64,000 nucleotides of DNA from Synchiropus picturatus (lineage: Eukaryota), in assembly GCA_044231675.1 (NCBI GenBank), contig CM094669.1, forward strand, positions 2,993,643-3,057,642, read 5' to 3'. The translations under genes were made by a program, and so were the position numbers. This document shows, piece by piece, positions 54,662 through 57,600 of the stretch (the first letter of the stretch is position 1; each line of letters opens with the position of its first letter). The notes below the pieces were generated by a model that was not told where the DNA came from, searched no databases, and saw nothing but the letters and a program-made list of their open reading frames with translations.

Positions 54662-57600
54662 ATGGCGGACCGGCGGCGAAGGAGGAGGCGCGCGTCTCAG
54701 GACAGCGAGGACGATGATGAATCCGGCTCCGGGTCGGACGTAGTAAGGTCTGGATCTCCGACTAACAAGAACCGCGTCAAGGAGCCCGAACCTGCGGAGG
54801 TCGCGGTGGGCCGGCTGGAGGAGAAGAACGACGTGGAGTCGGAGTGTGTGAGTAGCTAGTCGCGGAAGCTAACAGCCCCGAGCTGCTGCTCGAACCCTGT
54901 GTCCGATTAACGAAGCACTTTAATGACACACCAGCCCCGATGCGTTCGTGACCGAACTGTTCCGTTTCACCCAGCTTTGGTATCACAACAGCTCGGATAC
55001 ATGTTGTCGAACTCCATCATCACAGTGAGGTGGAGTGATCCAGTGATGGCAACTCTCTTTGGCAGACGCTAGTCTGACCTATAAACCTATTAAAGCCCAG
55101 TTCTGAGGGACTAACGGCGGGTTGCCTTTAAGAAATCCATCCTTGTCGCCGCTGATGGCATGTCAAATGTTTTCTTTGCCAACCATGTCATCTGATCACA
55201 TGCTGATTCATCAACTGTCTGACTCTGGCAGACTGAACGAACCGAGCTGTCGGGAGAACCGGTTCCACACTCGGCACTGTTACCTTGCTGCGCGCTGCTT
55301 ATGATGGGCCAGAGCCACAGACTCCATCCCACTTGTCTCCCCATCTTTAGCCTGCGGTTTCTTCCCACACCTGTGGGGGCGCTCAACCTATTATATCACA
55401 TTTGATTCACTGCTGCGTGCAGAATCAAGGTGTATACCGTGTATATATACATCTATTGTGTCTTTAACCTCAAAACAAAAGCCTAGTCTGCCCAGGGGAT
55501 TTATTCTTTGAGTCCAAAAAAGTTGAAATGTCTGCTCTCTGTTCTGCAGGAGAGCGAAGATGGAGCAGGTGAAGGTGAGCATCCGAGCCTCAGCACCTCC
55601 TGGTCGTCTGGTCGGCGGTGAAGTCATGTTTCTGTCTCTTTGTCCTCAGCTGTCCTCACGGACTACGACAGCGCAGACCAGGAAGAGGCCGGCTCCCACT
55701 CTGAGGTAACCAAGAGGTCAAGCGAGGCTGAGCCCTGAATGTTTGGTTCACTGTTTTCTTGTCTCCACAGGGATTAGAGGAGGAGGAAGAAGAGCAGTTC
55801 AGTGACGAAGACCCAGCAGCTGCCTGTGACGCCAAGCACACAGCTGATGAAAACGATGAGGAGGAGGAAGAAGAGGAAGAGGAGGAGCAGCAGCAGCAGC
55901 AGCAACAGCAGCAGGAGGAGGAGGAGGAGGAGGAGGAGGAGGAGGAGGAGGAGGAGGAGGAGGAGGCGGATGAGGAGGCGGATGAGGAGGGAGGAAGGAA
56001 CAAGGAGGAGAGGAAAGCAACAGAGAAAGCCAACTTGGCTGGAGAGAGACAGAGTGGGGATGGACAGGTGTGTGATGGATGAAGTAGGATTTTAGCTTGC
56101 AATAACACAATTAACTACTTTAGAATATGATTGAATCATATTTATTTTCGGTATTCGTGACAACGCGTCGTTCTTTTCTTGTCTGAGGACGTTGCCACAG
56201 TAGCCGGTGACATGTCGCCACCGTGTGGTGTGCCGGTGCACTACATGTCCTGAGAGGGAGCTCAGATCAGGTCGCCTTTATTCTTCCCACTTGTCTCAGC
56301 AGCAAGTATGAAAGAGATCAAAGACAAACACGACCTTAAAGTTGTAGCTTAAGAAAGTGTTTACATAAAGCAGCCACGTATTGCTCAAATAAATTGGTAA
56401 ATAACCACATTTTCTATTGAAAATAGTGGAAAAATAATAGCAAAAGAAAAAAGTGCAGGGACAATCAACAGTGAGTCCGGTCCAAGATAGAAATGTTGAC
56501 ATTTGTGAGCGATGCATTAAATATACAACATGACAGCAGGGGCGCTGTTGTAACGGTGTCAACATGTTTGACGATTGCTTCCACAGGAATCCACCGATGA
56601 CCCCGAGACGAAGAGTGGAGGGAAGCCAGGACAGAAGCTGGATGACGACGAGGATCGCAAGAACCCAGCCTACATACCCAGGAAAGGCCTGTTCTTTGAG
56701 CACGACGTCCGAGGCCACGCCCACGAGGAGGAGAGGTACCAGCCCGGGTCTTCAACTCGGCTGTTTGGACAAAACTGAACTTGTGTCTTTTCAGACCGAA
56801 GGGCCGGAACCGAAAGTTGTGGAAGGACGAGGGTCGGTGGGAACACGACAAGTTCAGAGAGGAGGAGCAGGCGCCCAAGAGCCGGGAGGAGCTCATCGCC
56901 ATATACGGTTACGACATCCGCAACGGCGGGGGGTCTGGGGAGCGAGCCATCCGGCAGCGGCGGTCGCGGTGAGATCCCTGGTTCAGACTTGTGAGAGAGC
57001 GCGGTAATGACGCTGGTGTCCCCGCAGGCAGCCGTCGTCTCCTGGCAGAGAGAAGCGCTGGAGGGACGGGGCCGAGCGTCCGGCTCGCACATGGCAGAGC
57101 AGCCGCGCCGGTGTCCCGCCTTCTCTCTCGCTCTCATCTACTCAGCGGAGCAACCCCAGGCAGGCCGCCCCCCGCGGCAGACCAGCCCATCACAGCCAGT
57201 TTCGGAACACTGAGTCGAACCCGCAGGCGGTCCAGCCCCATGAGCAGACGGGGCCCAAAGTGTCCCCAGAGCGGGCTGGAGAGCGACCCAGCAGAGGCGG
57301 GCGTGGAAGAGCCACGACTTCCGTGCCATTGGAGGCGGTTGCGGTCGGCCGGAGCAAGGCTGAGCGAGACGTTCTGGTCCCTGCTGCGGCCCCTGTGTCC
57401 CCTCCCCCTGGATTCCAGTCTCAGGAGCCGCGAGGACTGAGAGACCGCTCTCAGGTATTAGCTGCCCCCCCCCACCTGCATGGAGCCTCAGCCCTCATCC
57501 GCCGCCAGCCGGGACGATTCGCCCCCCTCTGAGCGGCCAGTGGAGCGGAAGTCGTACTCCTTGGCCCGTAGAACTCGTTCCCGGCCCGCGGACCTGGGCA

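Follow-up and report, generated by a model that had tools for sequence, protein, structure and literature searches.

Gene content and structure of the locus

The window, that is, the whole stretch of 64,000 nucleotides that was analysed, contains on its plus strand a casc3 gene of a percomorph fish. A manual model based on tblastn searches with fish CASC3 proteins places the gene at 54662-58940 and divides it into 11 coding exons (Table 1). All ten introns are of the GT-AG type and range from 59 to 702 nt in length, with short introns of 59, 59, 65, 75, 78 and 79 nt among them. The protein obtained after correction of the reading frame contains the Btz domain (PF09405) at residues 183-282 with a score of 60.7 bits (cut-off 22), and a phmmer search matched it to CASC3 chains in the PDB (2j0s, 3ex7 and 5xjc) with E = 3e-44 to 2e-41. 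An earlier note on this DNA had named the gene CASC3, which the domain score and the PDB matches (E ~1e-44) bear out.

Table 1. Features of casc3, with positions counted from the first letter of the window
Feature	Position	Strand	Basis
casc3 coding exons 1-4	54662-54847, 55550-55574, 55650-55705, 55771-56067	+	tblastn, manual model
casc3 coding exons 5-6	56587-56735, 56795-56968	+	tblastn, manual model
Btz/SELOR eIF4A3-binding domain, encoded by exons 5 and 6 with a 59-nt intron between them	56587-56968	+	Pfam, PDB CASC3 chains
casc3 coding exon 7	57028-57849	+	splice sites, orthologue alignment
Candidate GT..AG pairs that restore the frame, judged unlikely to be in use	57455-57533	+	enumeration, crude scoring
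TAG in the 0 mod 3 frame, 5' limit for the frame change	57459-57461	+	three-frame translation, stop counts of the deletion scan
C9 homopolymer, likeliest site of a one-base length error, with a probable true length of C8 or C11	57465-57473	+	run length, DNA alignment, deletion scan
TGA closing the 2 mod 3 frame, premature stop if the sequence is literal (product of 463 aa)	57530-57532	+	translation
RPVERKSYSLARRTRSRPADLGSK, a conserved motif read in the downstream frame	57534-57600	+	alignment, dN/dS of the downstream part of exon 7
casc3 coding exons 8-11 (including TGA)	58066-58239, 58368-58466, 58545-58714, 58794-58940	+	tblastn, manual model

The gene in the window shares with vertebrate CASC3, also called MLN51 or Barentsz and part of the exon junction complex (EJC), a Btz/SELOR domain. 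The two exons that encode it lie 5' of the frame break described below, are intact and are 92-93% identical to Seriola in tblastn. Orthologues from Seriola, Gouania and one Logan record gave tblastn matches to all casc3 exons, in order. The colinearity spans the whole length and takes in both the KSYSxARRTR motif and the RAKRYSSQRQR motif; with orthologues of fish and of tetrapods alike it reaches from the N-terminus as far as the KPPPPEV tail at the C-terminus. The gene departs from vertebrate CASC3 in that its ORF is broken in exon 7 as assembled, and the lineage in the window also has a long poly-E/Q tract encoded by exon 4 and an insertion of 6 aa close to the end of exon 7. This exon, 822 nt long as assembled, encodes the Ser/Pro/Gly-rich, fast-evolving middle of CASC3. 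Its description in the earlier note as the seventh coding exon agrees with the manual model and with the boundaries AG/G at 57026-57028 and G/GT at 57849-57851.

A change of reading frame inside exon 7

As assembled, the casc3 CDS is 2299 nt long, which is not a multiple of three, and the ORF stops at codon 464. The reading frame changes inside coding exon 7, with homology to fish CASC3 on both sides of the break. The upstream frame, with codon starts at 2 mod 3, is open from 57028/57029, reads ...FQSQEPRGLRDRSQVLAAPP and ends at the TGA. The downstream frame (0 mod 3) contains the TAG and is then open up to the end of the exon, reading LPPPTCMEPQPSSAASRDDSPPSERPVERKSYSLARRTR... The two stop codons confine the switch to 57462-57529. 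Past ...AAPP, the wrong-frame tail consists of the 19 codons HLHGASALIRRQPGRFAPL before the stop, where the earlier note had counted 25.

Within this interval lies a run of exactly nine C's. Among the 16 homopolymers of at least 6 nt that occur in the roughly 8.7 kb of coding sequence examined in the window, it is the longest and the sole one that is out of frame. Other C runs in casc3, a C8 at 58905-58912 and a C7 at 58869-58875, stay in frame. The earlier note had reported a frame break in a CASC3 exon at this C9 run, and both the run length and the CASC3-like nature of the two frames were confirmed.

To place the break, we deleted single bases one at a time and scored every resulting translation with an HMM built from 21 orthologues. 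The uncorrected sequence scored 65.7 bits, deletions at 57448-57500 gave 231-235 bits, and the maximum of 235.3 bits was reached at the C run. Products free of stop codons were obtained only from deletions within 57460-57530, with the exception of 57489, the removal of which creates a stop. The stop codons and the similarity to about 47 fish orthologues jointly narrow the frame break to 57460-57500, about 40 nt centred on the C9 run. Since the score plateau is flat, the placement of the switch "exactly" at the run, as the earlier note had it, is the most parsimonious one, in line with the scan maximum, but it is not proven. Deletion of one C restores a continuous ORF of 765 aa over 11 exons, as had been claimed. 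More generally, the uninterrupted ORF is absent as assembled and present only with one C fewer (C8) or two C's more (C11), both of which restore a full-length CASC3 of 765/766 aa.

An extra T at 57456, suggested by an uncorrected MAFFT DNA alignment (GG-ATTGG versus GGTATTAG), was rejected as the cause: at the codon level the difference is a GGA-to-GTA substitution, and deletion of 57456 leaves the TAG in frame, with one stop.

Orthologues and selective constraint

In the comparison with related fish suggested by the earlier note, about 47 fish orthologues had a single ORF straight across the break site, and all three that were aligned as DNA (L001, L004 and L006) had a run of Ser codons at the site of the C run, GCT GCT TCN TCC TCC ACC. 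The frame-broken state is therefore specific to the sequence in the window. A protein search yielded a best identity of about 57% for exon 7, with no close relative among the matches to reveal the ancestral run length. Exact-sequence look-ups in public assemblies with either broken ORF, 57480-57968 or 57260-57529, returned no record, and a pattern scan of metagenome contigs with the flanks of the C run and a gap of variable length gave 0 hits. No second copy of the locus from the same species came to light in the protein and contig collections searched.

For the part of exon 7 past the break, the dN/dS ratio against the three orthologues was 0.12-0.18, indicating that the sequence 3' of the break is under purifying selection; synonymous sites are saturated in these comparisons (dS >1 against the nearest DNA, L001, L004 and L006). 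The motif that begins shortly after the premature stop has identical or near-identical counterparts in the CASC3 of other percomorphs and is homologous to human DRPIEKKSYSRARRTRTK. Across exons 8-11 the identity to Seriola is 88%, a value to be compared with 82-87% for other percomorph pairs. The view that the downstream frame is conserved CASC3 sequence is thus upheld by the orthologue alignment, the dN/dS values and the conservation of exons 8-11.

A decaying pseudogene of some age, or a redundant paralogue with a functional copy elsewhere in the genome, would account for the lesion as well as for the divergence of exon 7, which is only 52-54% identical to other percomorphs whereas these are 64-75% identical among themselves; a "CASC3-like" entry marked as low quality is also known in Morone. 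However, the neighbouring Caskin-2 gene, which is intact, has the same long branch (70-73% versus 76-86%), so the divergence of exon 7 is a trait of the lineage rather than of the gene. The casc3 gene keeps all of its introns with canonical sites, there is no second lesion, exons 8-11 are conserved as in any fish and the downstream dN/dS is low, although such constraint would be compatible with a very recent lesion. On the constraint and integrity of the gene we reject an old pseudogene or paralogue, a reading that we consider highly improbable. Judged from its sequence, the locus is best explained as a normal, functional, single-locus casc3 of a percomorph fish.

Sequence error or real indel

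The apparent frameshift is probably a homopolymer-length error in the assembled consensus, an explanation that we infer rather than observe. The poly-C tract is written as C9 and would most likely be C8 in the genome (..LAAPPTCMEPQ..) or C11 (..LAAPPPTCMEPQ..), the extra base having entered during sequencing, consensus calling or polishing rather than being present in the animal. As in the class of assembly errors that lead to "LOW QUALITY PROTEIN" flags at NCBI, the break coincides with the longest homopolymer of the gene, and a one-base change in its length gives a full-length conserved protein in a gene that is otherwise intact and constrained. This likeness is seen at the level of the consensus sequence; a read-level signature of the class would consist of discordant run lengths or a strand or platform bias. 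Among the residual errors of long-read assemblies, those in homopolymer length are the most frequent; they are still enriched with HiFi reads, and they give rise to false frameshifts (PMC8812927, PMC12007338, PMC12212083). Frame problems in this GC-rich exon also affect further public models from fish. Across the KSYSLARRTR region, the wrong frame of the window is matched by the Takifugu model P0067 (E = 1e-7), and the "CASC3-like" entry of Morone saxatilis carries the flag LOW QUALITY PROTEIN.

Alternatively, the extra C, or the loss of two C's, could be a real germline indel caused by replication slippage, either as a heterozygous or segregating loss-of-function allele that the assembled haplotype happens to carry or as a very recent fixation. 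The seventh of the 11 exons in the mRNA would then contain a premature stop, making the transcript a substrate of nonsense-mediated decay (NMD), and any protein made would be 463 aa long and keep the Btz domain. Homopolymers are hot spots for mutation as well as for sequencing errors, and the coincidence with the longest run cannot tell the two apart because replication slippage likewise grows with run length. The window also differs from typical cases of assembly error in that no second homopolymer error was found in its 8.7 kb of coding sequence. A tblastn search with full-length Caskin-2 detected no frame break in the Caskin-2 gene of the window (about 1080 aa), and a Pfam scan of neighbouring ORFs, which identified SH2B-like, C2H2 zinc-finger and Caskin genes, showed no further breaks. 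The assembly is therefore without signs of being error-prone in general, which counts in favour of a real indel, but there are likewise no signs that long homopolymers in it are free of errors. Among frameshifted genes in human HiFi assemblies of the highest quality, about 78% represent true variants (PMC12212083). Human cells survive the knockout of CASC3, and a truncated CASC3 with residues 1-480 rescues endogenous NMD targets (PMC7470949), so a heterozygous or recent lesion is not absurd, and the phrase "essential EJC gene", which the earlier note had set against a real lesion, overstated the prior. On the other side, casc3 has a single lesion and the rest of the gene is undamaged. The C-terminal half is conserved in all fish sampled, which argues that it is needed, and the strong purifying selection and normal conservation downstream mean that any real lesion would have to be very young. 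A loss-of-function allele in one given constrained gene of a single individual has a low prior probability relative to the per-site error rate at runs of at least 9 nt. We regard a real indel as unlikely, though less so than the other alternatives, and nothing in the present data points towards a real C9 allele. The ranking in the earlier note, with an assembly indel ahead of a real lesion and of frameshifting, matches the evidence, as the best inference and not as a demonstration.

Possible splicing or recoding if the C9 run is genuine

A genuine C9 run could also be reconciled with full-length CASC3 if it were spliced out or recoded. For splicing, a lineage-specific donor at 57455 (CAG/GTATTA) could pair with acceptors at 57485 (GAG/), 57491 (CAG/) or 57533 (GAG/), corresponding to introns of 31, 37 and 79 nt. 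All three pairs restore the frame without stop codons, the longest acting as an "exitron" (57455-57533) with the product ..RDRSQ/RPVERKSY... The donor scores 1.0 in a crude position weight matrix, in which real casc3 donors score -1.0 to 6.6, and its GT results from the GGA-to-GTA change when compared with L001 and L004, two of the three DNA-aligned orthologues. The earlier note had put the gap between splice sites at about 29 nt and dismissed an intron as too short. The enumerated pairs are instead 31 nt (57455-57485) and 37 nt (57455-57491), for which the argument stands, as both fall well under the shortest real casc3 intron of 59 nt and, to our knowledge, below the vertebrate minima. It does not stand for the overlooked 79-nt pair, which has a normal intron length for casc3. 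Exitrons and ultra-short introns likewise have in-frame GT..AG pairs such as these, but in the window two of the pairs are shorter than any real casc3 intron, the third has an unfavourable acceptor and rival CAGs, and the interior keeps coding homology. Specifically, the acceptor of both the 31-nt and the 79-nt candidate is GAG, with a G at position -3 where 10 of 10 real acceptors have C or T, and the 79-nt option bypasses two upstream CAGs, at 57491 and 57508 (the latter out of frame). The segment removed keeps frame-0 coding homology at the level of the rest of the exon (..PQPSSAASRDDSPPSE.. versus ..SLQSSAAATNREASPPAE..), and none of the annotated isoforms of orthologues splices at the break site. 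Removal of the run by splicing is accordingly very unlikely.

Recoding would operate by +1 ribosomal slippage, or by slippage of the RNA polymerase to give C8 transcripts, so that some full-length CASC3 would be made. In the ribosomal version, tRNA-Pro on CCC_C in the P site (57470-72) would re-pair to 57471-73, followed by ACC. The shift needed is indeed +1, as in programmed frameshifting of the antizyme type, the slippery C run would allow perfect re-pairing in the +1 frame, and the product would be the same as that of the one-C deletion. In other respects the site differs from the antizyme type. The frameshift is missing from the approximately 47 orthologues, the three examined as DNA being without a C run, and hence does not serve as a conserved means of regulation. 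In the A site the 0-frame codon is CAC, which is neither a stop nor a hungry codon. Folding of the 100 nt downstream is no more stable than that of shuffled sequences (z = +0.36, with 130 of 200 shuffles equally stable), and we know of no vertebrate nuclear gene that uses such a +1 site. We reject programmed frameshifting because conservation, a stimulatory codon and a downstream structure are all missing, and decoding of a real C9 by slippage of either kind seems extremely unlikely. With the weak candidate acceptor added to these arguments, a C9 that is fixed in the species and still yields full-length CASC3 by tRNA-Pro slippage (CCC_CCC_C), polymerase slippage or the 79-nt exitron is likewise most improbable. 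If it were true, the recoding cases would make the output of an EJC/NMD factor hinge on recoding in its own mRNA, itself an NMD substrate.

Implications for annotation

The frame break is most likely a practical matter of annotation and not real biology. If C9 were real, it would represent a natural loss-of-function or C-terminal-truncation allele of a vertebrate EJC/NMD factor, which would be of moderate interest given that human residues 1-480 support NMD (PMC7470949). If the run length is an assembly error, gene predictors would end casc3 prematurely after 463 aa, introduce a spurious micro-intron or mark the model as low quality, and the locus would need polishing or an annotation in the corrected frame. 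Because the Takifugu model is mis-framed and the Morone entry is flagged, comparative work on the middle exon of fish casc3 calls for care.

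Location of the frame break in casc3

The sequence at 57440-57485 of the window is AGAGACCGCTCTCAGGTATTAGCTG-CCCCCCCCC-ACCTGCATGGAG, with exactly nine C's (C9) at 57465-57473. In a three-frame translation of 57028-57860, the frame with codon starts at 2 mod 3 was open from the start of the exon and read QPSSPGREKRWRDG...FQSQEPRGLRDRSQVLAAPP, then HLHGASALIRRQPGRFAPL, before ending at a TGA (57530-57532). The 0 mod 3 frame contained a TAG at 57459-57461, after which it stayed open as far as the exon end and read LPPPTCMEPQPSSAASRDDSPPSERPVERKSYSLARRTRSRPADLGSKQ... The two stop codons thus limit the change of frame to 57462-57529. 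The coordinates and description of the break in the earlier note were correct, except that the tail in the wrong frame comprises 19 codons rather than 25.

We removed every base of 57380-57599 singly and scored the translations with an HMM built from 21 fish orthologues. The uncorrected sequence scored 65.7 bits, removals at about 57448-57500 scored 231-235 bits with a steady drop further 3', and the maximum of 235.3 bits was reached wherever the removed base lay in the C run. Products free of stops were obtained only with deletions inside 57460-57530, the exception being 57489, where the deletion creates a stop. Since the plateau is flat, the scan locates the lesion only to within about 40 nt, an interval in which the C9 is the only homopolymer. 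The raw MAFFT alignment suggested an additional T at 57456, which was rejected as a candidate: at the codon level it is a GGA-to-GTA substitution, and its deletion keeps the TAG in frame.

Three orthologous DNA contigs from Logan and ENA (L001, L004 and L006) have GCT GCT TCN TCC TCC ACC or a shorter variant at this site, where the window has GCT GCC CCC CCC C ACC, indicating that T-to-C changes in a run of serine codons made the C tract. Judged from this comparison, the length of the tract would be wrong by +1 or -2. About 47 orthologues cross the site in one frame, many of them as one continuous ORF predicted on a raw contig.

Integrity and constraint of the gene

The casc3 model was built from tblastn matches to fish orthologues and inspection of the sequence itself. 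All 10 introns were of the GT-AG type (702, 75, 65, 519, 59, 59, 216, 128, 78 and 79 nt). As assembled, the coding sequence is 2299 nt long and reaches a stop at codon 464; taking one C out gives an ORF of 765 aa and putting two C's in gives 766 aa, the terminal stop being the sole stop in both. The repaired translation of exons 6-7 matched CASC3 proteins of fish, birds, mammals and frog in a protein search, and the repaired full-length product contained the Pfam domain Btz (PF09405; 60.7 bits, cut-off 22), a region that also matched the CASC3 chains of exon junction complex and spliceosome structures (2j0s, 3ex7, 5xjc; E ~1e-44).

Features of the window
Feature	Position	Strand	Remarks
SH2B-type adaptor gene	5769-8554	+	Phe_ZIP and SH2 domains; apparently intact
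C2H2 zinc-finger ORF	24411-25469	-	apparently intact
Caskin-2	35784-41227	-	Caskin Pro-rich and tail domains; apparently intact
568-aa ORF	46747-48450	-	without Pfam match; overlaps 405-aa ORF
405-aa ORF	47159-48373	+	overlaps 568-aa ORF
casc3 coding model	54662-58940	+	11 coding exons
casc3 coding exon 7	57028-57849	+	seventh in the 11-exon model
Candidate acceptor GAG/	57485		31 nt; well below casc3 minimum of 59 nt
Candidate acceptor CAG/	57491		37 nt; well below casc3 minimum of 59 nt
Candidate acceptor GAG/	57533		79 nt; normal length
C7	58869-58875		casc3 exon 11; in frame
C8 (KPPPP)	58905-58912		casc3 exon 11; in frame

No second lesion was found across the 11-exon model. The dN/dS values for exon 7 were 0.12-0.18 after the break against the three orthologues and 0.43-0.47 before it (L004 and L006 only, dS being too saturated against L001), all of them rough because dS is saturated. 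Over exons 8-11, identity was 88% with Seriola and 85% with a second percomorph, matching the 82-87% seen between those fish themselves. Exon 7 was more divergent (52-54% vs 64-75% identity), but the intact neighbour Caskin-2 showed the same long-branch pattern (70-73% vs 76-86%), so that the divergence reflects a lineage effect and not decay. We conclude that casc3 is otherwise alive.

We also surveyed homopolymers across some 8.7 kb of sequence that is likely to be coding (CASC3, the large exons of the SH2B-like gene, Caskin-2 and the zinc-finger ORF, and the 568-aa ORF). Only one of the 16 runs of at least 6 nt broke the frame, namely the longest, the C9. Aligned to full-length orthologues, Caskin-2 had no break of frame within any exon. 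The assembly thus carries no visible general error load, and the single error candidate is located where errors are most expected.

Origin of the frame break

The break is probably a one-base homopolymer-length error of the consensus, in which the run would be miscounted by one base at the C9 within an otherwise normal casc3; most probably no novel biological feature is involved. Published work ranks homopolymer-length errors first among the errors that persist in long-read assemblies and names them as a cause of false frameshifts (PMC8812927, PMC12007338, PMC12212083). A real indel is unlikely, if still worth weighing: slippage mutations, too, prefer long runs, and about 78% of the frameshifted genes in the best human HiFi assemblies are true variants (PMC12212083). 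Nor is CASC3 as indispensable as the earlier note had assumed: its knockout leaves human cell lines viable, and a protein truncated to 1-480 is enough to restore endogenous NMD targets (PMC7470949). However, nothing downstream of the break has decayed, and a real lesion must therefore be heterozygous or very young. That the locus is an old pseudogene or a paralogue is extremely unlikely, and this reading was ruled out by the integrity and constraint of the gene.

Removal of the C run by splicing is very unlikely. Among all frame-restoring GT..AG pairs, there was one usable donor, CAG/GTATTA at 57455, with three nearby acceptors; on a crude position weight matrix it scored 1.0, within the range of the real casc3 donors (-1.0 to 6.6). 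Two of the acceptors would give introns well short of those in the gene. The third, at 57533, would give one of ordinary size, but it has G at -3, unlike all 10 real acceptors, its use would pass over two upstream CAGs, and 26 codons whose alignment to orthologues is no poorer than elsewhere in the exon would be lost. Least likely of all is recoding: the required shift is +1 and tRNA-Pro can re-pair on CCC_C, but the frameshift is not conserved in orthologues, the codon in the A site is CAC, an ordinary one, and the 100 nt downstream are no more stably folded than shuffled sequences (z = +0.36). The order in which the earlier note had ranked the explanations, an assembly indel foremost, is supported.

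Related records and other features of the locus

Exact look-ups of both broken ORFs in public assemblies gave no record, and metagenome contigs scanned with a pattern anchored on the flanks gave no match. The top protein matches to exon 7 were just 52-57% identical and those to Caskin-2 (Pampus, Seriola, Sebastes, Lates) 56-64%, with no close relative of this percomorph in the protein collections searched. In a UniProt model from Takifugu rubripes (P0067, A0A674P2V4), the KSYSLARRTR region is translated in the frame equivalent to the wrong frame of the window (E = 1e-7; GAQVLLAGPQDSLPARGPGQ vs GAEVVLLGPxNSFPARGPGQ); the model is off frame over the conserved KSYSLARRTRSRPADLGSKQ region and is back in frame before ..LTELEQDVARISL. 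A CASC3-like entry from Morone saxatilis (P0034) is labelled LOW QUALITY PROTEIN. Frame trouble thus recurs for this GC-rich exon in public fish data, and the value of the C9 break is as a warning for annotation.

Many casc3 introns (54848-58793) are very short (59, 59, 65, 75, 78 and 79 nt; maximum 702 nt) and the surrounding GC content is high (48-61% per 4 kb), which suggests a compact, GC-rich percomorph genome. Exon 4 contains a long, almost pure GAG/CAG repeat (55870-55990) encoding about 9 Q and >30 E, which far exceeds the acidic tract of the retrieved orthologues in length and is likely a further spot for a miscounted length in the assembly or for a real polymorphism in length. At the end of exon 7 (57803-57838) there is a lineage-specific in-frame insertion of 6 aa in the orthologue alignment (SPTSYVQNPISYIRSEVK here vs SPTSYIRSEMRG in other fish), flanked on both sides by a TCCTAC (SY) hexamer, a pattern expected of a small duplication or of slippage. 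Either of the overlapping 568-aa and 405-aa ORFs may be genic, belong to a repeat element or arise simply from the GC-rich composition. The sole other C/G homopolymer of 9 nt in the window, a G9 at 60062-60070, lies just 3' of CASC3 inside a putative 293-aa ORF on the minus strand (59786-60664), which is without a Pfam match and whose translation looks non-coding.
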